A DNA stretch of 64,000 nucleotides from Alphaproteobacteria bacterium (GCA_045563055.1 JBJKUR010000008.1:64525-128524), one strand, 5' to 3'; positions 1,141 to 44,299 are shown, counted from the stretch's first letter. Numbers and translations are program-made. The notes: generated by a model not told the origin, from the sequence alone.

Positions 1141-1773
1141 TTAAATATTTTTTTTTTTAATCTCTCTTATAACATCATATCTAAAGTCCTTCTGCGCTTT
1201 ACTTACAGAAAAAATAAGAACAGAAATATTTTTTTTGATTATTTTTTTATCACTAATTCCTAATTCAAAACTTTTATATAATAAAAAAATTAAATCAATT
1301 CTAGCTTCATAGGTCCTTGACAAAACAACTTGTTTATTTACTTCCCATAGTTGGTTGACTTGATCTAAACGAAATATGTAATCTTTATAATTTAACTTAT
1401 CAATATATGACCAATGGACAATACAATTTTCTATAATTTCATTGGAATGCCTTTTGAGCCGGTCGTCTTCTTCAAAAAGTTTTTGTAGAATTAAAAAAAA
1501 ACTGTATGCAAAAGAATTTATCTCTATTCTCTGAAGTTTTTCGAATTTCTTATTGAAGAGTATTTTATAAAGTTCGTTGTGCAAAATTTTTATTTTTTTT
1601 TTAAAGGGTTGGTTAAATAAAATTTCAATAGACATGACTGTAAGAAAGAAACTCAATGAAAATAAAACTTCATTCTTTGTTTTAGATTTGTTAAATATTA
1701 ATTTAGGATCAAAGCTATCGGGGTTAAATTTCTTGCGCCATATTCTTACATCATCTATTTTTGAATTGACCAT
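1141..1773 (-). CDS. hypothetical protein (orphan)
   Basis: 210-aa ORF with no motif I recognise. Flanked by roughly 200-nt AT-rich spacers on both sides. Confidence 0.45.
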   Translation of the reverse strand: MVNSKIDDVRIWRKKFNPDSFDPKLIFNKSKTKNEVLFSLSFFLTVMSIEILFNQPFKKKIKILHNELYKILFNKKFEKLQRIEINSFAYSFFLILQKLFEEDDRLKRHSNEIIENCIVHWSYIDKLNYKDYIFRLDQVNQLWEVNKQVVLSRTYEARIDLIFLLYKSFELGISDKKIIKKNISVLIFSVSKAQKDFRYDVIREIKKKNI

Positions 1774-1946
1774 AATAAAGTTTAGAATTGGAAATTAATA
1801 GTTGTCAATATATGCACTTGATAAATCCATTCTATTAGACTAGTCAATAATAACATTATAATTAACATTTTTGTTTTATTTATGATAAATCTTATTAAAT
1901 TCGTCTATTTTTGAAATAAGAAAATATCAAATGCGATAATGGCAAT

Positions 1947-2525
1947 ATGAACGACAAACGAAGTAAAATATTCCAAAAAATATTAGAAATTTGTAGCAGG
2001 AAGAAATCTAGATTTGTACTTTATTTAATATCATTCTTTGAGTCGATTTTTTTCCCTGTTCCTACAGACCCCTTTTTAATACCTTACATATTAGCTGAAA
2101 ATAAATTCTTAAGGCTGGCTATCAATGTAACATTCTTTTCAGTCTTAGGAGGAATTATTACCTATATGATTGGAACAATTCTTTGGGATAATATATTTCC
2201 GATAATGATTAATTATTTCCCAAATATATCGAACCATATTGAGAACTTTCAAGAAGACTTTTATGAATTTGGTTATTTAATGATTATTATCGGAGGTTTT
2301 TCACCATTCCCATTTAAAGTTACATGTCTGGCCTCAGGGATCTTAAACATTAATTTTATAATATTTATAATTCTTAGTGGATTATCAAGAGGAATTAGAT
2401 TTATTTTAATTTCATATTTAATTTATAAATACGGTAGATCATCAATTAGTTTTATTAAAAAAAACATTTTATTAATTACATTACTAATAATCCTCATATC
2501 TGTGATTATACTTTATTTAAGATGA
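1947..2525 (+). CDS. YqaA/DedA-related membrane protein
   Basis: 192 aa with several TM helices. N-terminal FFESIFFPVPTDPFLIP matches the YqaA-type E-x-x-x-x-P-x-P motif. Confidence 0.6.
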   Translation: MNDKRSKIFQKILEICSRKKSRFVLYLISFFESIFFPVPTDPFLIPYILAENKFLRLAINVTFFSVLGGIITYMIGTILWDNIFPIMINYFPNISNHIENFQEDFYEFGYLMIIIGGFSPFPFKVTCLASGILNINFIIFIILSGLSRGIRFILISYLIYKYGRSSISFIKKNILLITLLIILISVIILYLR

Positions 2526-3037
2526 TTTTAAGATGATAAGAGTTTTATATTTGTGTAATAATAAATTCACACAGTTATGATTTTTATATCTTTATAGAAA
2601 TTACAAAAAAATTTAGATTTATATTAATGACAGATACTGAACTTGTTAACGGATTTGATTTTAAATAAATTTTATAATACTGATTTAAGCAAATAATTAA
2701 AAAATATCGGACTCAAACCTATACAACCCGAAATATGGTGCGTTCAGGAGTTTAATTATTGTTGTATATACACATAACAATAATTTAATTTTAAGTTCAA
2801 AGTTGCTCAATTCTCTCTATTTACTGATTGATCGATTTAAGTAAAACAAATTAAAATAAAAATTCATACATAATACATAAGTATATATTATAGAAGTTAT
2901 TAATTAGAGTAATAAGATTACAATAAATCATGAATGGAAAAAATATTATAAGATAAATAATTTACTAAAAATAAATAATTTAATTTTTAGAATTATGATA
3001 AGTTATTTTGTAATGAACTAAATTCTAAAGAGGAAAA

Positions 3038-3895
3038 ATGATGAATATTTCGAACTCAACTTATAAATATATAATTGGCGGTATTGTCATCATAACTTTT
3101 TTATTTCTACTTATGTCAAAATTTGGAAAAAATGAAAAGGTTGTATTGAACGAAAATATAAAGCCAGATACTTTGGAAAAAAATGAGGAGGATATATCTT
3201 CCAATATGATTTCAAATGAAAAACCTGATGTAAGTGGAATGGATAATAAACAGAAAAAAAAAACCGATGACAGCAACCTAAGTAATACAAAGAAGATTAA
3301 AGAAGATAAAAAGAAAGAAGTAAAAATTAAACAGAATGATAAAAAAATAAAACAAAAAACAAGAACAAACTTTTTTATTGATCCAGTTCAGACTGTTAAT
3401 GAATTACACAAAGGTTTGGAAGAAATTAATTTTGACAACAGAGTTAATAGTTTAAATGAAATTAAAAGATTAGTAAAAAGAACTTATAATAGCGGAAAGA
3501 TGACTAAAATGATTATTGGAAAAGATTGGATGAAAATTGAAGATAAAAAAAAGGGTGAGTTGATAGAAGTTATGGAAGAGTATATAGCAAATAACTATAT
3601 TGCCAGGTTCTCAAAATTAAAAAAAGTAAGTTTTGAAAATAAAAGTTCAAAAAAAATTCAGGCAGATTTTAAAATTGTCAGTACGTTACTCAAACTAAAA
3701 ATGGACAACGTAAATATTGATTATTTATTATCAAAGAAAAATGGTGAATGGAAAATTTTTGATGTTATACTTGATAATTCTATTAGTGAAGTGGCAACAA
3801 AGAAATCCGAATTCAGTAACTACGTTAATGAAAAAAATATCGATAAATTAATCAGCGCTTTAAAAAAAAAAAATAGTCAATTAAAATTAAATTGA
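3038..3895 (+). CDS. MlaC/Ttg2D-family (phospholipid-binding, toluene-tolerance) protein with Lys-rich N-terminal linker
   Basis: N-terminal TM/signal anchor, then a K/E/N-rich low-complexity stretch. The C-terminal GEWKIFDVILDNSISEVATKKSEFSNYVNEKNIDKLISALK aligns with E. coli MlaC ..[38 protein letters not shown]. Confidence 0.6.
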   Translation: MMNISNSTYKYIIGGIVIITFLFLLMSKFGKNEKVVLNENIKPDTLEKNEEDISSNMISNEKPDVSGMDNKQKKKTDDSNLSNTKKIKEDKKKEVKIKQNDKKIKQKTRTNFFIDPVQTVNELHKGLEEINFDNRVNSLNEIKRLVKRTYNSGKMTKMIIGKDWMKIEDKKKGELIEVMEEYIANNYIARFSKLKKVSFENKSSKKIQADFKIVSTLLKLKMDNVNIDYLLSKKNGEWKIFDVILDNSISEVATKKSEFSNYVNEKNIDKLISALKKKNSQLKLN

Positions 3896-4178
3896 AACCA
3901 AGTCAGGTAAAGCACCTATGGTTTACGTAAAGTATAATTCTTGTGAATCTCTTGAAACAACCAGAAAACCTCAATAAATCTACCGTATAATTATTAAATC
4001 TATTTTTGTATATCTAAGATTATGTTATGTTGATAAATATTAACAAAGTCAATGGAATAATTTTTAGGTTTTTTCTAATGAAAAGATTTTTTCAAGCTTT
4101 ACAAATTATCTAAAATTTAATTAATTTGATTATGAAAGTTAAGAAAATATTAAAACGAATATTTAATTAAATAAATTC

Positions 4179-5255
4179 ATGTTCAATAAAAATCATACAT
4201 TTTTAATTGCAGAGGGCGGCGTCAATCATAATGGAAAAGTTAAAAATGCATATGAATTAATAGATATAGCGTCAGATTCAGGGGTAGATGCAATCAAATT
4301 CCAAACGTTTAAGGCTGAGAATATTTGTACCAGGCACGCGCCAAAAGCTTACTACCAAACCAAAACTGATAAAAATGATACCCAATTTAATATGTTAAAA
4401 AAACTGGAATTAAATTTTCAGCAATTTAAGGATCTTGCAAACTATGCAAAAAAAAAGAAAATAATTTTTTTATCCACTCCGTTTGATACAAAAAGTGTCG
4501 ATTACTTGGTTGATGAATTGAAAGTTGAGGCGATAAAAATACCTTCCGGTGAAATAAATAACTTTGAATTAATTGATCATATCAGTAAAAAAAAAGTTCC
4601 GGTAATATTATCATCAGGAGCCTCCAACATAGAAGAAATTTCAATTGCACTTAATTTATTGATGAAAGGTAAAAAACTAGGAAGAAATCTCAAAAATAAT
4701 AAATTCCTAAATAAAGATATTAAGACAAATAAAAATTTAGCTGTTTTGCACTGTGTAAGTGAATATCCTGCTCCAATTGAAGAGGCTAATATAAGATGCA
4801 TCAATCTTTTGAAAGAGAAATTTGGATGGAATATTGGATATTCAGATCACTGTATGGGTCTTGCGGCTTCTATCTCCGCAGTTTTTTTGGGAGCTACGAT
4901 TATTGAAAAACATATTACGATTAATAGAGAAATGGAAGGTCCAGACCACTTTGCATCCATAGAGCCAGATGAATTAAATTTACTAGTTAAGACGATTAGA
5001 GATTTAAAGCCTTCGCTTGGAAAACCAAAAAAAATGGTTACTCAATCAGAAAAAAAAAATAGAAAAGTAATAAGAAGATCATTAGTTGCGAGTAAAAAAA
5101 TAACAAAAGGTGATCTATTCGATTTTAATAATTTGACAACCAAACGTCCAGCATTAGGAATTGAGGCGTCGCGTTTTTTTGAATATATTGGTCAGAAAGC
5201 TTTAAGAGATTATGTAAGGGATGAGATTATCAATCAGAAATTAAATAAGAAATAG
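4179..5255 (+). CDS. N-acetylneuraminate-synthase family enzyme (NeuB/LegI/PseI type nonulosonic acid synthase), copy 1
   Basis: FLIAEGGVNHNGKVKNAYELIDIASDSGVDAIKFQTF is the classic NeuB N-terminus. The C-terminal SAF-like domain is (..RRSLVASKKITKGDLF..). Confidence 0.9.
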   Translation: MFNKNHTFLIAEGGVNHNGKVKNAYELIDIASDSGVDAIKFQTFKAENICTRHAPKAYYQTKTDKNDTQFNMLKKLELNFQQFKDLANYAKKKKIIFLSTPFDTKSVDYLVDELKVEAIKIPSGEINNFELIDHISKKKVPVILSSGASNIEEISIALNLLMKGKKLGRNLKNNKFLNKDIKTNKNLAVLHCVSEYPAPIEEANIRCINLLKEKFGWNIGYSDHCMGLAASISAVFLGATIIEKHITINREMEGPDHFASIEPDELNLLVKTIRDLKPSLGKPKKMVTQSEKKNRKVIRRSLVASKKITKGDLFDFNNLTTKRPALGIEASRFFEYIGQKALRDYVRDEIINQKLNKK

Positions 5256-5271
5256 AAATTTACAACTATAA

Positions 5272-5952
5272 TTATTTTTTCATTATAAATTTTTCACTAT
5301 GAATTTTTATTCTAAGAGGATGAGAACTAGTATGAAAAGCTCTCACTCTTTTTTGGAGTTCGGTTTTACTGATGTTTCTGTTGATTTCTTGAAAATTGTC
5401 TACTTCGCTTATTTTTGTTTTTTTCTTTGACCAAGTAACATCTTTATTTTTTGTAGCCATCTCTTTAACATATTTATGACCATCCGCTTTAAGCGTATTA
5501 GTAAACTCTATAAAAGATTTTAAAAGTAATTCATGAGTTTTTTTTAAAAGACTATCTAAATTATCTTTAGGTTCAATTTTTAAATTTTTAGTTAAGATAA
5601 TATCACCATCATCAACACGTCTATTCATTAAATGTATGGTAATTCCAAACTTTTCATCATTATTATATAAAGCAAAATTTAACCCTCCAGATCCTGGATA
5701 AGAGGGTGGTGCAGGGTGAAAATTAATTGAATAATGACGTGGTAATTTTAGCAATGTATCAGGAAGAATAAAATAGCTTCGATGACATAAAATATAATCT
5801 AAATCTGAATCTGATATTCTTTTAAGTTTTTCACCTCTTTTATTTGACCAAATAACTGAAATATCAAAGTTTAAATTATTCAAGTGTTCTAAACACTTCA
5901 TTGAATAGTAGTCATTTTTCCTACCAAAGAATAAAATTTTTAATTTTTTCAT
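5272..5952 (-). CDS. formyltransferase-domain protein (sugar N-formyltransferase candidate)
   Basis: KILFFG.. Rossmann start and the SINFHPAPPSYPGSGG..ITIHLMNRRVDDGDII formyl_trans_N core. Confidence 0.7.
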   Translation of the reverse strand: MKKLKILFFGRKNDYYSMKCLEHLNNLNFDISVIWSNKRGEKLKRISDSDLDYILCHRSYFILPDTLLKLPRHYSINFHPAPPSYPGSGGLNFALYNNDEKFGITIHLMNRRVDDGDIILTKNLKIEPKDNLDSLLKKTHELLLKSFIEFTNTLKADGHKYVKEMATKNKDVTWSKKKTKISEVDNFQEINRNISKTELQKRVRAFHTSSHPLRIKIHSEKFIMKK

Positions 5953-5968
5953 CTCTATATCTTATCAT

Positions 5969-6655
5969 TTATATTTCCATTAGATATTTTGCGTATTCGA
6001 AATCTTCAATATAGTCAATATCTATTGACTCTTTTTTATCCATTATTAGTGGTAGAGATTTATTCTTTATAATGAATTTTTTGAATTTTAAAAATTTATT
6101 TACGTATGTTGTGTAAATGGCACCATTAATTTTATAATTCTTTTTCAATATTTTATTTAATTTAGGGTTAACTAAGTCTTCTATAAATCCGTTATTATTT
6201 ATGAGCTTACACCAACTTATATGAAAATTATTTTCTACCATTCCAATCACTGAGAATACTTCAGTCTTTGACTCTAACATTTCTATGGATTTATCTATAC
6301 TTCGAGAGGTTCTCATGGGACTTGTGGGTTGCAACAAAATTAATATTTCGTATTTGTTTATTTTATTGAGCTTGTTGAGTGTAAATATCATTACATCTTC
6401 AGTTGAAGAAGAATCAGTTGCAAATTTTTTTGGCCTTAAAAAAGGAACGTCAGCACCAAACTGCTTACCTATTTTGGCTATTTCTGGAGATTCTGTAGAT
6501 AGAATAACTTTATCTATATACTTTGAGTTCAAAGCAGCCTTGATTGACCAATAAATCATGGGCTTACTATTTATTTTTAAAAGGTTTTTATTTTTTAATC
6601 TCTTACTACCTTTCCTGGCTGGTATTATGGCAACAATGCGTTTGGTGTTTATCAT
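5969..6655 (-). CDS. acylneuraminate (CMP-nonulosonate) cytidylyltransferase, copy 1
   Basis: VAIIPARKGSKRLKNKNLLKINSKPMIYWSIKAA is the CMP-NeuAc synthetase signature. Confidence 0.85.
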   Translation of the reverse strand: MINTKRIVAIIPARKGSKRLKNKNLLKINSKPMIYWSIKAALNSKYIDKVILSTESPEIAKIGKQFGADVPFLRPKKFATDSSSTEDVMIFTLNKLNKINKYEILILLQPTSPMRTSRSIDKSIEMLESKTEVFSVIGMVENNFHISWCKLINNNGFIEDLVNPKLNKILKKNYKINGAIYTTYVNKFLKFKKFIIKNKSLPLIMDKKESIDIDYIEDFEYAKYLMEI

Positions 6656-6660
6656 GAAAC

Positions 6661-7302
6661 TTAGTCAATAATATTTTTTATAAGATAGAATCCTTCTGCA
6701 TAATGAAAGCCTCCTTGGGCTCCTCTAATTGTAGCAAGCGATTTAATTGATTCTAGACTTCTGGGGAAAGGGTGCGATTTAAATTCATTTTTATATATTT
6801 GTATAATTTTACATTTTTTTTTAAACTCATTGCTAATGTTAACAAAAGTATTAGGTTGAAAAATATTTTTTTCTAAAGAATAATTATAATTGGTTTCTGA
6901 TAAAGTTTCGTATACGTAAACTTTTTTTATAAAATCATATCTAAATGATTTCAAAAATGTTTGAAAACAAGCAAATACAATTCGATGATCTGAATGCGCA
7001 TCACCAGAAAAGGGTAGAAAAATAACTTCGGGTTTAATCTTAATTATATAATTTTTAATTTTATTAATGATTTGTGAAAGTCCAATTTGATCAAGAGAAG
7101 AAGGCAAGAAGTTGGCGTTATAATATGAGTTAAAATCATAAAAATTGTTTACTTTTTTTATATTTTCTTGACTATCAGTTGAAGAAGTAATGATAAGCCA
7201 GTGAGTTTTATTGGCATTTTTTTTAAACTTTATAATTGTCCCACCGCAGCCCAGTGACTCATCATCTAAATGTGGGGCAACAAATAAAATTGATCTACTC
7301 AT
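6661..7302 (-). CDS. PIG-L/LmbE-family de-N-acetylase
   Basis: ILFVAPHLDDESLGCGGTI and the later GDAHSDH zinc-site motifs. Confidence 0.8.
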   Translation of the reverse strand: MSRSILFVAPHLDDESLGCGGTIIKFKKNANKTHWLIITSSTDSQENIKKVNNFYDFNSYYNANFLPSSLDQIGLSQIINKIKNYIIKIKPEVIFLPFSGDAHSDHRIVFACFQTFLKSFRYDFIKKVYVYETLSETNYNYSLEKNIFQPNTFVNISNEFKKKCKIIQIYKNEFKSHPFPRSLESIKSLATIRGAQGGFHYAEGFYLIKNIID

Positions 7303-38988: not shown

Positions 38989-39798
38989 TTACTGACAATT
39001 TTCTATATCTACCTTTGTGCCTAAAAGTTCATCTCCATTGTAATTATTTTTTACACCTTTTATTGTAGAGGCATCTTCGAAATCAAAGCCGGTACTTATT
39101 CTTATGTATTTATCATCGATACACTTTTTATGAGACGGATCGAACCCTACCCAACCTAAATTATTTATAAAAATTTCTACCCATGCGTGAGTGGTATGTT
39201 CACCTGAAACCGTTTCTTCTAATAAAAAACCATTAATATATCTTGCTGGGAGTTGGTTAAGCCTCGCCGCGCTGATAAGGATGTGAGCAAAATCCTGACA
39301 GACACCCTTTTTTTGCTTCAAAGCGTCCTCTGAACTAGTAGATGTTGTCGTTGACCCACTTACGTATTTGATAGAGTTTGAGACTATTAAATTAAGCTTA
39401 TGGGCAAATTCTATTTGGTTTTTATTATTTTTTTTTGCATTTACCGAAATTTTCTCAATGTTTTTGCACGGTTTTGTTAAGTCTGTTTCTCTTAGAAAAC
39501 AAAGCGGATTAACTTTTTCTTTCAAACCTTTTACTAAACCAGATAAATCTTTTGTTTTTAATATTCCTTTTGAAGTAATTTTAAGTTGTCCACGAAAATT
39601 ATTAATAAAAATATTTTGTATTCTATGTCCTAAGGCATCAGTGTGTGACTCTAATATTTTTCCATTACTTGAGAACGTTTTCCATTCTATAATTTCCTGA
39701 TTATCGCATACCGATGGATAAAGTTTTAAACACTGAATAAGCCTGGGCACTGTTGAACTATATTCATAGGTTGTTGAGTGAGTGATTTTAATATTCAT
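38989..39798 (-). CDS. transglutaminase-like cysteine peptidase-fold protein
   Basis: GVCQDFAHILISAARLNQLPARYINGF (Cys), ..HAWVEIF.. (His) and ..GFDPSH.. (Asp) form the transglutaminase-core triad. Confidence 0.85.
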   Translation of the reverse strand: MNIKITHSTTYEYSSTVPRLIQCLKLYPSVCDNQEIIEWKTFSSNGKILESHTDALGHRIQNIFINNFRGQLKITSKGILKTKDLSGLVKGLKEKVNPLCFLRETDLTKPCKNIEKISVNAKKNNKNQIEFAHKLNLIVSNSIKYVSGSTTTSTSSEDALKQKKGVCQDFAHILISAARLNQLPARYINGFLLEETVSGEHTTHAWVEIFINNLGWVGFDPSHKKCIDDKYIRISTGFDFEDASTIKGVKNNYNGDELLGTKVDIENCQ

Positions 39799-40754
39799 GT
39801 TTCTGAACCGAAAAAGTATTTTTGTTCAAATTTTTTATAAACGATATTTATTTCTTCAATAAAGGATTTTAGAAATTCATGCAAACCAATTTCTGTAATT
39901 TTATTAGCATTTAGATTTTTTATTTTTCTATACATTTCTCCCATTTTTTTATTTGAAACAGAAGTTTGTTTATAAAATTTTGACAGCCTTCCTAAATGAT
40001 GATTAATTTTTTCTATTGAGAAAATTAGAGATCTTGGGCAAGTCATATTCAGAATTAAAAAATCTATAATTTTAGTGTATGTAATTTCTTGTCCTCCATA
40101 CGCCCATTTAAATGCCCTGAATGATGAAATTGACCTCAACATCAAACTCCATTGAAAATTGTCAATATCACCTCCGACATAGTTTATGCTTGGAAGTAAA
40201 ATAAAATATTTAACATTAATAATTCTTGCAGTAAAATCTGCTCTTTCAAAATAAGTTCCTAATATTAAAAAATCATAACCATCATTAATTAGTTGGGTGT
40301 TAAGTATTGTGCCTCTAATTAAATTCACTTGTTTTTTTATCCATTCAATAATTTGAGGCAACTCTTTTAAGATATTTTTTGTATCTTTTAAATTTTTATC
40401 TAGTTCATGATAAGAGGAATTAATTGCATTCCAAACCTCTAAAGTAACAGCAGTTCTGACCATTCTTATATTTTCTCTTGCTGTTTTTATACAGTTTTTA
40501 ACTGAAGAAGAGTTTTCTGGATCAAAAAGAAGAAAGAAAATAATTTTCTCTTTAGATATTGTTTTATATTTTTTTAAATATTCATTTTTAATTCCTGAGG
40601 TTTCCAGAATTGATTCCCATTCATTTGTATAACCTCTTTCAGTATTAGGAATCAAAGAAATTCTGTATCCAACCTCTAGGAGTCTAGCTAAAGAATCGGC
40701 TCGTTCTATATATCTTGCCGACCAAAATAAATTTTCTGCAGTTCTACTTAGCAT
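39795..40754 (-). CDS. alpha-E domain protein (DUF403)
   Basis: MLSRTAENLFWSARYIERAD is the characteristic alpha-E N-terminus. Overlaps the transglutaminase gene by 4 nt. Confidence 0.8.
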   Translation of the reverse strand: MLSRTAENLFWSARYIERADSLARLLEVGYRISLIPNTERGYTNEWESILETSGIKNEYLKKYKTISKEKIIFFLLFDPENSSSVKNCIKTARENIRMVRTAVTLEVWNAINSSYHELDKNLKDTKNILKELPQIIEWIKKQVNLIRGTILNTQLINDGYDFLILGTYFERADFTARIINVKYFILLPSINYVGGDIDNFQWSLMLRSISSFRAFKWAYGGQEITYTKIIDFLILNMTCPRSLIFSIEKINHHLGRLSKFYKQTSVSNKKMGEMYRKIKNLNANKITEIGLHEFLKSFIEEINIVYKKFEQKYFFGSET

Positions 40755-40759
40755 ATTAA

Positions 40760-42166
40760 CTATTCATTAAGTATCCATGTATCTTTAACTCCTCCACCTT
40801 GAGAAGAATTAACCACTAATGACCCTTGATTTAAAGCAACCCTTGTTAATCCACCATTAACTAATTTTGTTTTATTTGCTCCAACCAAACAAAATGGTCT
40901 AAGATCAACGTGTCTTGGCGACAATTTTTTTTTATCAAAGACTGGTACCGAGGATAATTCAAGTATGGGTTGGGCTATATAGTTTGCTGGATTTAAAAGG
41001 ATTTTTTTTCGAAAAATTCCAATTTCTTTTTTTGACGATTTACTTCCAATTAATAAACCATAACCACCAGAGCCATGGACTTCTTTAACAACTAATTTAC
41101 TTAAATTATTTAGAACGTATTTTTTTGCACCTTCTTCACAACATCGCCAAGTTCTTACATTTTCTAGAATTGGTTCTTCTCCCAGGTAAAATTTAATTAT
41201 TTCAGGTATGTAAGAATAAATAGCTTTATCGTCAGCGATACCTGAACCTGGAGCGGAACAAATATTTACATTACCAGACTTATATGAATCAAATAAGCCA
41301 GGAATTCCAATAAGTGAGGAACTATCAAAAGTGATTGGATCAATGAATTTATCATCAATTCTTCTGTAAATTATATCAACTTTTTCTGGTCCCCTAGTTG
41401 TTTTCATATATGTTATAGATTCATCAACGAAAAGGTCATTTCCTTGAACTAATTCAACCCCCATAAGGTCAGCTAGAAAACTATGTTCATAATATGCGCT
41501 ATTTAAAGAGCCAGGCGTAAGTATTACTACTTTTGGTTCTTTACCACATTTTTCTGGGGCTAGACTTTTTAGAACATCTAACAAATAATTTGGATAGTTT
41601 TCTACAGTTTCGATTTTTAATTTTTCAAATAATTCTGGAAACATTCTCATCATTATTTCTCTATTTTCAATCATATATGAAACTCCAGATGGAGTTCGAC
41701 AATTGTCCTCAAGAACTTTAAAAAGTTTTTCGTTAATTCTTACAATATCAGATCCAATAATTGGACTGTAAATTCTCTTAGGAACCTTAAAACCAATCAT
41801 TTTAATTTCATATGCAGGGTTTTTATAAATCAAATTTTCTGGTATTAATTTTGCTTTTATAATTTCACCAGAATTATAAATATCATTTAGAAAGGCATTA
41901 ATGGCTAATGCTCTTTGAATAACTCCTTTTTTAATTTTTTTCCATTCTGTTGACGAGATTATTCTTGGAAACATATCAAATGGAATTAAGCGCTCAGTAG
42001 AATCAAAGTTATTATATACAGAAAATGTAATACCTATCTTTTTAAAAAGATTTTCAGCTTCAGTTTTCTTTTTAACAATTACATTTTCGGGTAAAGATTT
42101 AGCCCAATCATATATTTGATTGTAAAATTTTCTTACTTTTGAGTTTTTATAAACTTCGTTGTACAT
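40760..42166 (-). CDS. circularly permuted ATP-grasp protein (type 2; DUF404/DUF407)
   Basis: 468 aa. Conserved three-gene context with alpha-E and transglutaminase genes (the COG2308/COG2307/COG1305 arrangement), plus ..VVKEVHGSGGYGLLIG.. ATP-grasp-like segments. Confidence 0.75.
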   Translation of the reverse strand: MYNEVYKNSKVRKFYNQIYDWAKSLPENVIVKKKTEAENLFKKIGITFSVYNNFDSTERLIPFDMFPRIISSTEWKKIKKGVIQRALAINAFLNDIYNSGEIIKAKLIPENLIYKNPAYEIKMIGFKVPKRIYSPIIGSDIVRINEKLFKVLEDNCRTPSGVSYMIENREIMMRMFPELFEKLKIETVENYPNYLLDVLKSLAPEKCGKEPKVVILTPGSLNSAYYEHSFLADLMGVELVQGNDLFVDESITYMKTTRGPEKVDIIYRRIDDKFIDPITFDSSSLIGIPGLFDSYKSGNVNICSAPGSGIADDKAIYSYIPEIIKFYLGEEPILENVRTWRCCEEGAKKYVLNNLSKLVVKEVHGSGGYGLLIGSKSSKKEIGIFRKKILLNPANYIAQPILELSSVPVFDKKKLSPRHVDLRPFCLVGANKTKLVNGGLTRVALNQGSLVVNSSQGGGVKDTWILNE

Positions 42167-42207
42167 CTTCTTTCACTTATTATCGGAGTGGAAGGAGACA
42201 GATGGAT

Positions 42208-42253
42208 GCGTTCCTTCGGTTTCAAACCTACTTCCGACCATAATGGTTGAACG
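42208..42253 (-). promoter_or_regulatory. candidate glutamine riboswitch (glnA RNA motif-like aptamer) in the 5' leader of the ATP-grasp operon
   Basis: The minus strand reads CGTTCA-ACC-ATTAT-GGT-CGGAAGTAGG-TTTGAAA-CCGAAGGAACGC. It has a P1 CGTTC/GAACG, a small ACC/GGT hairpin, and AGUA opposite GAA (loop-E signature). The blocks match my recollection of the glnA-motif consensus. It lies 41 nt upstream of the ATG. Confidence 0.5.
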
Positions 42254-42313
42254 TTTATTTGAGATTATAACTAATCATTTTCCAAAGCAAGAATTATTTG
42301 GTTTGTGTTATTA

Positions 42314-42366
42314 CTAGTCGGACTCAAACGGACATGAACCGAAGTTTAACGGATTTTGAATCAGTG
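42314..42366 (-). repeat. decayed partial copy (3' half) of tRNA-Leu(CAA), direct repeat B
   Basis: ctagtcggactcaaacggacatgaaccgaagtttaacggattttgaatcagtg versus tRNA positions 44220-44272: about 48 of 52 nt identical, same orientation. The acceptor end and the 5' half are absent. Confidence 0.75.
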
Positions 42367-42442: not shown

Positions 42443-42468
42443 AAATTAAGTCAGAAATGACTTAATTT
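42443..42468 (-). terminator. perfect 11-bp inverted repeat hairpin at the end of the lipoprotein gene
   Basis: aaattaagtca-gaaa-tgacttaattt overlaps the stop codon by 2 nt. T-rich on both sides. The stem is AT-rich, so terminator function is uncertain. Confidence 0.35.
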
Positions 42469-42796
42469 ATTTTTCGCAACCTTTCACATCCATTGCTTTC
42501 CTTACAGCCTCTTTTTCACCTTTTACAATTGCAAGTTCTGAAGCTTCAACACCATCACCAGTTCCAAATCCAAGAAGCAAAGCTTGCACTAAGCTAGACT
42601 TTCTTCGCCCTTCTTGAGCAATTGTAAGTTGGTCTTCTCTTCTTGCTAAAGCATTAATTTCAACTGCCAATCTTTCACACTCATAATTTTCATATTTCAT
42701 TCCTGAAGTATATGAGCCTGTAATCTGAGCTGCTGGTGTAGGCATATTACATGAGACAAGTAAAAGTAAATTAAATAAAATAAGGACAGACTTCAT
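42467..42796 (-). CDS. small lipoprotein, unknown function
   Basis: MKSVLILFNLLLLVSC: signal peptide plus a lipobox (L-V-S-C). 109 aa. Confidence 0.7.
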   Translation of the reverse strand: MKSVLILFNLLLLVSCNMPTPAAQITGSYTSGMKYENYECERLAVEINALARREDQLTIAQEGRRKSSLVQALLLGFGTGDGVEASELAIVKGEKEAVRKAMDVKGCEK

Positions 42797-42845
42797 CTCA
42801 ATATCTAATCATAAAAATTCATTCAGGAAAAGAAAATTAATTTTA

Positions 42846-42908
42846 TGGTACCCTAGTCCGACTAGAACGGACATGAACCGAAGTTCAACGGATTATGAAT
42901 CAGTTGCG
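42846..42908 (-). repeat. decayed partial copy (3' half incl. CCA end) of tRNA-Leu(CAA), direct repeat A
   Basis: tggtaccc-tagtccgactagaacggacatgaaccgaagttcaacggattatgaatcagttgcg versus 44213-44276: about 59 of 63 nt identical with one 1-nt gap, same orientation. Confidence 0.8.
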
Positions 42909-43104: not shown

Positions 43105-44082
43105 TTAAGTAATCTCTCTTGAGAGTTCATTCGCACTTAAGAATGCACCTTCCACTCTGCTATTAACTAACCAATCACCGCAAACTGCAATTTTATTTTC
43201 ATGATCAATAAAATAATTTTCTTTTGGAGAACATTCGGCTTCGACATACCTCCATTGATGAATTTTTATCATAGATGATTTGAATAAATCATAATTTATT
43301 AAGTTACTAGATATATTTAACAAATGTTTTAAAACTTTATCATTTGGAGTATTGATATTTCTAGTAGCGTACTCGTATGAAGAGTTAATTAGCAAACAAT
43401 GATTTTTCATTCTAAACGGTTTTGAATTATTTAGGGCTAACCATGCAATATCTTTGTTTTCAATAAATGCTGCATCAAAATCTAATTGTAATGATTTATC
43501 CATTCCAACCATCAAAGAATAGCACCCTTTCATTTTAATTTTTTTTACATTGGGATAAAAGGAAGTTTTATCTGAAATTATATCAAGAGATTGCTCAGCT
43601 GGAAGACTTAATATAACCCAATCATACATTCCGTGAGGTTTTTTATTTTGGTCATAAAGTTCCCATTTATCATTTTTTCGTTTAATTCTTTCAATTTTTG
43701 TATCTAAAATCAAATTACAATCTCTAGAGATGTATTTTAAAATGGAATCCATATTTGGAACTCCAACATAAAATTTATCAGCATTTTTGATTATTTTAAT
43801 TTCTCTTAAATGATTTCCTTCAAAATATGCAAGTTTAAAACTCCAAGGTTGAATAATTTCTTGTGTAAACAATTGTGAGAAAAATTTTTTACATTCAGTT
43901 GTTTTAATTTTGAAAAATTGAGCTCCATGATCAAAAATAAAAGGAGATTCTTTTCTGGTTGACATTCTTCCACCTACTTCTCGTGATTTTTCAAAGATTT
44001 TTACATTGAATTTATCTTTCATTATGCAGGCAAAAGTGATTCCTGCCAAACCAGCACCTATCACTGCTATTTTTTTATTCAT
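43105..44082 (-). CDS. NAD/FAD-dependent oxidoreductase (renalase-like, COG3380-type)
   Basis: KIAVIGAGLAGITFACIM (GxGxxG) followed by ..EKSREVGGRMSTR.. typical of this amine-oxidase-fold family. Confidence 0.7.
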   Translation of the reverse strand: MNKKIAVIGAGLAGITFACIMKDKFNVKIFEKSREVGGRMSTRKESPFIFDHGAQFFKIKTTECKKFFSQLFTQEIIQPWSFKLAYFEGNHLREIKIIKNADKFYVGVPNMDSILKYISRDCNLILDTKIERIKRKNDKWELYDQNKKPHGMYDWVILSLPAEQSLDIISDKTSFYPNVKKIKMKGCYSLMVGMDKSLQLDFDAAFIENKDIAWLALNNSKPFRMKNHCLLINSSYEYATRNINTPNDKVLKHLLNISSNLINYDLFKSSMIKIHQWRYVEAECSPKENYFIDHENKIAVCGDWLVNSRVEGAFLSANELSREIT

Positions 44083-44212: not shown

Positions 44213-44299
44213 TGGTACCCCTAGTCCGACTCGAACGGACATGAACCGAAGTTCAACGGATTTTGAATCCGTCGCGTCTACCAATTCCGCCATAGGGGC
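44213..44299 (-). tRNA. tRNA-Leu (anticodon CAA), type II with long variable arm, CCA encoded
   Basis: The minus strand reads GCCCCTATGGCGGAATTGGTAGACGCGACGGATTCAAAATCCGTTGAACTTCGGTTCATGTCCGTTCGAGTCGGACTAGGGGTACCA. It has an anticodon stem ACGGA/TCCGT with loop TTCAAAA, a T-arm GTCCG-TTCGAGT-CGGAC, and an acceptor GCCCCTA/TAGGGGT (G1-U72 wobble). Confidence 0.9.

Follow-up and report, generated by a model that had tools for sequence, protein, structure and literature searches.

The closest described relative of the element reported here is the type-1 glutamine riboswitch (glnA RNA, RF01739) in the leader of gifB from Synechocystis sp. PCC 6803, which combines a three-stem aptamer, the conserved blocks CGUUCA, CGGAAGUAGG and GAAGGAACGC and a C after the first stem (P1) with a position in the 5' leader, probable translational control and a nitrogen-related context (PMC6212724; PMC2864571). 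A 64,000-nucleotide (nt) stretch of DNA from an alphaproteobacterium (GCA_045563055.1, JBJKUR010000008.1:64525-128524; hereafter the window) contains on its minus strand an element that shares these features, located in front of three genes encoding a circularly permuted ATP-grasp protein, an Alpha-E domain protein and a transglutaminase-like protein. The locus departs from the gifB system in its host, the abundant marine bacterium SAR11, whereas Klahn et al. (2018) called the class exclusively cyanobacterial (PMC6212724). It also departs from the type-1 precedents in its target, a three-enzyme operon rather than the small-protein gene gifB (IF17), glnA, gltB or amt, and from gifB in the predicted behavior of its expression platform, which would turn off, not on, with glutamine. 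The reading favored here is that of a type-1 glutamine riboswitch acting on translation and turning off a SAR11 ATP-grasp/Alpha-E/transglutaminase operon when glutamine is bound; from modeled folds and leader comparisons its probability is put at roughly 0.6.

The distribution of the glnA RNA was listed by Weinberg et al. (2010) as 'Cyanobacteria, marine', the latter meaning metagenomes (PMC2864571), and RF01739 matches have since been mentioned in passing for pelagiphages (PMC9004378) and for SAR86 (PMC12379486). The type-2 riboswitch of marine picocyanobacteria (Downstream-peptide, RF01704) resembles the present element in its ligand class, its related core and its occurrence in marine, low-GC, streamlined genomes. 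However, type 2 precedes short DUF4278-like open reading frames (ORFs), whereas the architecture here is the three-stem one of type 1 and the gene downstream encodes 468 amino acids (aa). A permissive scan of 36-48 kb of the window yielded nothing further, and RF01704, the glutamine-II family, had no match there at E<=1.

Identity and structure of the aptamer

The minus strand from 42253 to 42208 reads CGTTCAACCATTATGGTCGGAAGTAGGTTTGAAACCGAAGGAACGC, the same letters that an initial annotation of this DNA had assigned to the glnA RNA motif. That assignment is borne out by Rfam cmscan, which places RF01739 at 42205-42255(-) with an E-value of 1.2e-10 and a score of 59.7 bits, well over the curated gathering threshold of 35 bits. 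The alignment is full-length (model positions 1-53 of 53, not truncated), all upper-case consensus nucleotides of the family are matched, and this is the sole cis-regulatory match in the window (Rfam 15, curated thresholds). A covariance model built for this analysis (R2) scores the same segment at 67.1 bits.

All parts of the three-stem junction can be located on the minus strand. P1 is formed by 42249-42253 paired with 42209-42213, and is followed by the P2 hairpin (42237-42247), the junction CGGAAGUA (42229-42236), the P3 hairpin (42218-42228), the tetranucleotide GAAG (42214-42217) and the conserved C 3' of P1, the 'linchpin' position, at 42208. The invariant junction and E-loop nucleotides CGUUCA, CGGAAGUAGG and GAAGGAACG, together with this C, all fall within 42253-42208. 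Ligand binding stabilizes P1, as Ren et al. are said to have found. Their 2015 study, as summarized in PMC6212724, also has the C after P1 forming a long-range G-C pair upon ligand binding, with reorganization of the helices.

Covariation, which the initial annotation had proposed as a test, supports the fold at the level of the class and is silent at the level of the operon. Across 30 diverse class members the P2/P3 register has 99.1% of cells paired, with 45 double-change cells, a result reached by 0 of 500 shuffles; P1 is fixed in this set by the search pattern used. The window sequence fits the register of this covarying junction of P1, P2 and P3. Within the operon's own leaders the stems are invariant and speak neither for nor against the structure. 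Judged by its sequence, the element almost certainly belongs to the type-1 glutamine riboswitches and probably binds glutamine. The class is known and has been solved structurally; the element is an ordinary representative of it, scores high and would be called by any Rfam-based annotation.

Host range and gene context

The closest orthologs of the ATP-grasp protein (88-97% identical) are found in metagenome-assembled genomes (MAGs) and single-cell genomes of Pelagibacteraceae/SAR11 type among GTDB contigs representing one genome per species, and the GC content of the window is 24-37%. The window therefore comes from SAR11 and not from a cyanobacterium. The orthologs inspected were the best 80 of 580 genome matches plus 11 protein clusters. 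RF01739 lies upstream of the ATP-grasp gene, in the same position, in all 12 SAR11 species-representative loci (L001-L012; 52-61 bits), and all clusters sampled at 78-86% identity carry the aptamer as well (L201, L204, L212, L214, L216 and L217), in gene neighborhoods that differ. Its position is thus the same in 18/18 related operon loci examined at 78-97% ATP-grasp identity. A more distant alphaproteobacterial MAG with a 1.4-Mb contig (L023, 69% identity) also carries it (Rfam, 61.8 bits). The other orthologs examined at <=76% identity (L014-L022, L024-L080, L206-L211 and L219-L221), which include Gammaproteobacteria, Rhodospirillaceae, Rhodobacterales and Planctomycetota, have no aptamer according to Rfam for 15 loci and to R2, with its checked register, for all. 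The nearest 90%-identity protein cluster comprises 549 member sequences.

An alignment of 13 SAR11 leaders, of the kind that the initial annotation had called for, shows an essentially invariant aptamer, while the sequence upstream of the adjoining promoter-like element diverges completely; the three sequence blocks do not vary in these leaders, nor in six more leader variants. When JGI metagenomes were scanned for an exact pattern of the aptamer core, 120 loci were retrieved, in which the genes downstream are ORFs of 31-70 aa from several families, ammonium transporters, glnA and gltB. An ATP-grasp gene follows in 0/120 of these sampled environmental loci, as against its presence throughout the near relatives of the window. 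The gene context is therefore rare in the class and fixed in one operon clade.

In most of the 120 metagenome loci (L081-L200) the type-1 aptamer precedes a short ORF (31-70 aa) by 21-30 nt. These ORFs represent eight or more unrelated families, of which a single one matches DUF4278 (IF17-like); the largest has 19 members, the motif ...RFTHLFK...NGNGTSGYVVK and no Pfam match. The median GC content of the loci is 35%, and many may come from phages or heterotrophs. Another streamlined low-GC marine lineage (L206-L211, from the P0039/P0050 clusters; 74-76% identity, contigs up to 1.1 Mb, GC 0.30) carries the operon 58-61 nt behind a phosphoribosyltransferase gene and lacks the aptamer. Thus, the riboswitch is not general to streamlined genomes that carry the operon.

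Leader layout and competing helices

The aptamer lies in the 5' leader, on the operon's strand and near the start codon, as is expected of RF01739. The 41 nt counted in the initial annotation between the last C of the aptamer (42208) and the ATG (42166-42164) are correct. The end of P1 and the AUG are 42 nt apart in 12 of the 13 SAR11 leaders, as they are in L023, and 36-50 nt apart in the other variants, which leaves too little space for a leader ORF. About 10 nt before the aptamer, the 13-leader alignment contains a promoter-like element of the form TTGnTT-15 nt-TATAAT. In the window it consists of the -35-like hexamer TTGCTT (42285..42290(-); TTGATT in most orthologs), whose TTG is invariant in the 13 leaders, and the -10 hexamer TATAAT (42264..42269(-)), whose TATAA is equally invariant and which lies 10 nt upstream of P1. 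The elements at 42264-42290(-) probably act as a promoter, with a predicted transcript start a few nt before P1. A consensus promoter scan did not flag them because the -35 matches only 3/6 positions and the spacer is 15 nt. A terminator-based mechanism was rejected: between aptamer and AUG the leader (minus) strand has no intrinsic terminator, and a match at 42235-42249(+) is the P2 hairpin on the wrong strand.

The initial annotation had also pointed to mutually exclusive pairings around TCTCCTTCC (42198-42190(-)); they are real, and more extensive than it described. A pyrimidine-rich switch segment, AUCUGUCUCCUUCCACUCCGAUA (positions -37..-15; 42181..42203(-)), has two complementary partners, the aptamer core (GGUCGGAAGUAGG...GAAACCGAA) and a purine-rich block that runs into the start codon, AAGUGAAAGAAGAUG (42164..42178(-)). 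The latter is the putative ribosome-binding region, with which the segment is predicted to pair when the aptamer is folded. When the aptamer fold is enforced, the tail segment forms helix (a) with the purine block before and including the AUG, in the window as UGUCUCCUUCCACUC with AAGUGAAAGAAGAUG and in L002 and L003 as the 8-bp pairing of UCUCUUUC with GAAAGAGA. In L204, L216 and L023 it is CUCUACC or CCUCUA that sequesters a canonical Shine-Dalgarno (SD) sequence whose core is GAGG; the L214 counterpart is UCUACUC, which covers the SD-like block GAGUGGA. In the unconstrained minimum-energy fold the same tail segment pairs with the aptamer core instead (helix (b)): GUCGGA-GU-GG with CC-AC-UCCGAU and GAAACCGAAGGA with UCCAUCUGUCUC in the window, GGAAGUAGG with CCUGCUUCU in L010, and AGGUA-AGACA with UGUCU-UACCU in the L023 group. 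Minimum-energy folds alternate between this aptamer-invading helix and the hairpin over the ribosome-binding region.

Both competing pairings exist and are conserved. In the 13-leader alignment helix (b) has 96% of cells paired, compared with 40-61% in slid registers, and its ten one-sided substitutions all keep pairing; helix (a) has 82% of cells paired against the same 40-61%, with three pairs changed on both sides. Among 18 distinct leaders, duplex energies of helix (b) range from -12 to -18 kcal/mol, helix (a) occurs in 16 with -5.5 to -14 kcal/mol, and both helices are found in 16, with 7-18 nt of the tail common to the two. The divergent leaders (L008, L010, L023/L204/L216/L217, L201 and L214) build the same two complementarities from different sequences. 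The aptamer-invading helix is the more stable alternative: unconstrained ensembles are 5-16 kcal/mol lower than bound-mimic ensembles.

A switch can be proposed from these pairings. The promoter-like element would start a transcript immediately in front of the aptamer. When glutamine is low, the switch segment (42181-42203) would invade the weakly stable aptamer by pairing with the junction GGAAGUAGG and the P3 region; the ribosome-binding region would stay open and the operon would be translated. At high glutamine, the ligand would lock P1 and the junction and release the switch segment, whose pairing with the purine block and start codon (42164-42178) would then block translation. On this view, limiting nitrogen would switch the operon on. 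Occlusion of the ribosome-binding site (RBS) is the probable mode of action in this model, and the off direction is favored with somewhat less assurance.

The environmental glnA-RNA leaders of amt, glnA and gltB (L129, L162, L171, L184, L116, L089 and L146, with the L013 aptamer lying between glnB and glnA) carry the same aptamer. Those of amt also share the layout, namely aptamer, pyrimidine-rich anti-SD with UUUCC/ACUUCC, loop and SD. The anti-SD, AUUUCCAUA or ACUUCC (which contains the complement of GGAAG), pairs there with the SD UAUGGAGG, and turning off with glutamine is the expected logic. Unlike the SAR11 leader, these environmental leaders often have tandem aptamers, and they control classical nitrogen-assimilation genes. 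The leaders of gltB (large subunit of glutamate synthase) in L089 and L146 have a different platform, made of three mutually competing hairpins on a repeated AAACUCUAG/AGAGUUUGGUG motif. The C conserved downstream of P1 is where the first hairpin begins, and the last one takes in the AUG. It could be an on-with-glutamine design, because glutamine is a substrate.

Several observations weigh against the proposed off switch. The complementarity of tail and aptamer beats dinucleotide-shuffled tails only modestly (z -0.02 to -3.5; individual p 0.004-0.46), because any pyrimidine-rich tail pairs with the purine-rich aptamer. Free and bound-mimic ensembles show small and inconsistent differences in the unpaired probability of positions -14..+3, L010 and L012 have no convincing hairpin over the ribosome-binding region, and the purine block of most SAR11 leaders lies too near the AUG for a canonical SD. 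Compensatory changes in helix (b) cannot be scored because its aptamer side is invariant, and the 13 SAR11 leaders are closely related. Finally, the sole experimentally characterized type-1 example, gifB, turns on with glutamine (PMC6212724).

The behavior of gifB, the only class member tested, is also what speaks for reading the same riboswitch as an ON switch, in which the unliganded leader blocks the RBS and the glutamine-induced long-range G-C pair melts the inhibitory helix. The operon would then be made when glutamine is plentiful, for example consuming or storing excess nitrogen by ATP-dependent ligation, and glutamate or glutamine-derived substrates are indeed plausible for an ATP-grasp ligase. 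In L009 and L212 the RBS hairpin (CAUCU with AGAUG) even reaches within 2-3 nt of the conserved C. However, the base in front of the ATG varies, so that this pairing is not a conserved one. The main anti-RBS segment (-34..-20) is separated by more than 8 nt from the conserved C and is the one with complementarity to the aptamer core; a folding aptamer therefore sets that segment free instead of capturing it. An ON switch is considered unlikely because it is the unfolded, not the folded, aptamer that captures the anti-RBS segment. Homologous operons, moreover, are induced and not repressed by nitrogen limitation in two other genera.

Two further explanations carry less weight. The aptamer might act mainly on transcript levels, through Rho-dependent termination or RNase access in the leader or early coding region, given that lost translation often exposes Rho or RNase sites secondarily, that SAR11 leaders have weak SD sequences and that mRNA and protein levels are uncoupled in SAR11 (Smith et al., PMC3870248). 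This view, which is compatible with translational control by an off switch, is improbable as the principal mode of action: the minus strand is free of intrinsic terminators between aptamer and AUG, only about 42 nt are available, and the competing helix takes in the start codon region itself. It is very improbable that the aptamer is a chance resemblance, a decaying relic without regulatory role or a variant for another ligand. Such a view could appeal to the lack of stem covariation in the operon's own leaders, which arises because all stems are invariant there. It is hard to reconcile with a full-length match at E 1.2e-10, with conserved junction nucleotides that are all intact, with an aptamer that is invariant while the intergenic flanks diverge completely, and with its retention down to 78% protein identity in varied neighborhoods.

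The operon, nitrogen status and genomic surroundings

The leader precedes three genes on the minus strand. The first (40760..42166) encodes a circularly permuted ATP-grasp protein of 468 aa (CP_ATPgrasp_2, PF14403, E 2.8e-151), the second (39795..40754) an Alpha-E domain protein of 319 aa (PF04168, E 2.9e-80) and the third (38989..39798) a transglutaminase-like protein of 269 aa with Transglut_core and Bact_transglu_N domains (PF01841, PF08379). Genes 1 and 2 are separated by a 5-nt gap and genes 2 and 3 overlap by 4 nt, so the three form an operon. Three adjacent, co-oriented genes with the right Pfam domains mark it as a member of the CP-ATP-grasp/Alpha-E/transglutaminase-like family (formerly DUF404/407-DUF403-Bact_transglu_N), and the gene order is the same in all related loci with called genes. 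This enzyme set is widespread but unnamed and carries no functional assignment. NCBIfam has no name for any of the three proteins, an exact-sequence look-up of the ATP-grasp protein found no identical entry on record, and the PDB relative of that protein, 3n6x (E 2.3e-165), is labeled 'putative glutathionylspermidine synthase'. In two uncultured gammaproteobacteria (L017 and L020) the ATP-grasp operon is inserted in the rRNA operon region, between 16S rRNA/tRNA and tRNA/23S rRNA.

The initial annotation had suggested that a glutamine-sensing leader would tie this gene set to nitrogen status. The suggestion is in line with nitrogen-responsive homologs in Burkholderia and Pseudomonas, a precedent in published transcriptomes that it had overlooked. 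The B. cenocepacia H111 cluster I35_5080-83 (DUF404/407, DUF403 and two transglutaminase-like genes) is 6- to 9.4-fold lower in an ntrC mutant under nitrogen limitation, and is among the loci most strongly dependent on NtrC/sigma-54 in that condition (PMC5491218). In P. putida the ATP-grasp gene PP_2688 has a log2 fold change of 3.99 on nitrate relative to ammonium, and both it and the nearby proteasome-like gene PP_2685 are up about 16-fold (PMC8050072). The abundance of the operon's domains in the Global Ocean Sampling (GOS) marine metagenomes correlates with that of urea-metabolism domains (PMC3597751). Transcriptomes from two genera already show a tie between operon and nitrogen, so the idea is in essence not new, but the evidence from the separate genera seems not to have been drawn together before.

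The NtrC/sigma-54-controlled B. cenocepacia cluster and P. putida PP_2688/PP_2685 resemble the SAR11 locus in operon family and in their apparent expression at low nitrogen, hence at low glutamine. In Burkholderia, however, a protein transcription factor acts at a sigma-54 promoter, whereas in SAR11 a cis-acting RNA would sense glutamine directly and would thus do the job that NtrC appears to do for the homologous Burkholderia clusters. SAR11 is reported to lack PII and NtrBC, and riboswitches have been put forward speculatively as their replacement (Smith et al., PMC3870248). That the SAR11 glutamine riboswitch, with inverted (off) logic, is a direct nitrogen-status sensor and the operon a conserved nitrogen-starvation module is a tentative proposal, given slightly less than an even chance.

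A neighborhood that links the operon to nitrogen genes is seen in the marine alphaproteobacterial MAG TMED62 (L013, 72% identity). An RF01739 aptamer (43.8 bits) lies there between glnB (PII) and glnA, in a region spanning 1643-3588(-), and the ATP-grasp/Alpha-E/transglutaminase operon, at 3986-7167(+), is an adjacent, divergent, aptamer-less unit beyond a tRNA gene.

No paper in the literature searched combines a glutamine riboswitch with a transglutaminase or an ATP-grasp protein, and the first 200 of the 438 supplementary files of Weinberg et al. (2010) make no mention of DUF404, DUF407, transglutaminase or ATP-grasp. New relative to this literature are the host among SAR11 and related Alphaproteobacteria, the unnamed but widespread operon as target, and a predicted logic inverted with respect to gifB. 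The SAR11 host, the likely off direction and the rarity of the gene context within the class had likewise escaped the initial annotation. The host matters because the class is described as exclusively cyanobacterial in its main functional paper (PMC6212724); the present loci place the type-1 glutamine riboswitch in SAR11 and related marine Alphaproteobacteria. A direct glutamine sensor would also provide a concrete element for the question, raised by Smith et al. (2013), of how SAR11 senses nitrogen with neither PII nor NtrBC. The position of the riboswitch before the operon suggests that streamlined SAR11 cells tie this operon directly to nitrogen status. Together, three independent regulatory links (NtrC in Burkholderia, nitrogen source in Pseudomonas and the riboswitch in SAR11) point to a role in nitrogen limitation and narrow the search for the biochemistry of the set. 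If the off direction is true, one aptamer class is wired both ways. Should the element also prove to be the proposed nitrogen-status sensor, no off-type glutamine riboswitch would have been described before it, and SAR11 would have its first identified mechanism for sensing glutamine.

The region upstream of the leader contains a repeat array. The 3' part of a tRNA-Leu(CAA) gene (44213-44299(-)) is repeated downstream at 42834-42904 and 42295-42365 with 75-82% identity. The repeats bracket two cassettes, one with a 109-aa ORF of no known family (42467-42796) and one with a 325-aa ORF resembling FAD/NAD-binding oxidoreductases (43105-44082). The array looks as if elements had been inserted one after another at a tRNA hot spot; no integrase was seen there. 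A tRNA match of identical score (29.1 bits) occurs about 245 nt upstream of the aptamer in L004, and one lies about 2.1 kb upstream in L001. In the window, the riboswitch promoter begins about 5 nt past the last repeat copy (42295).

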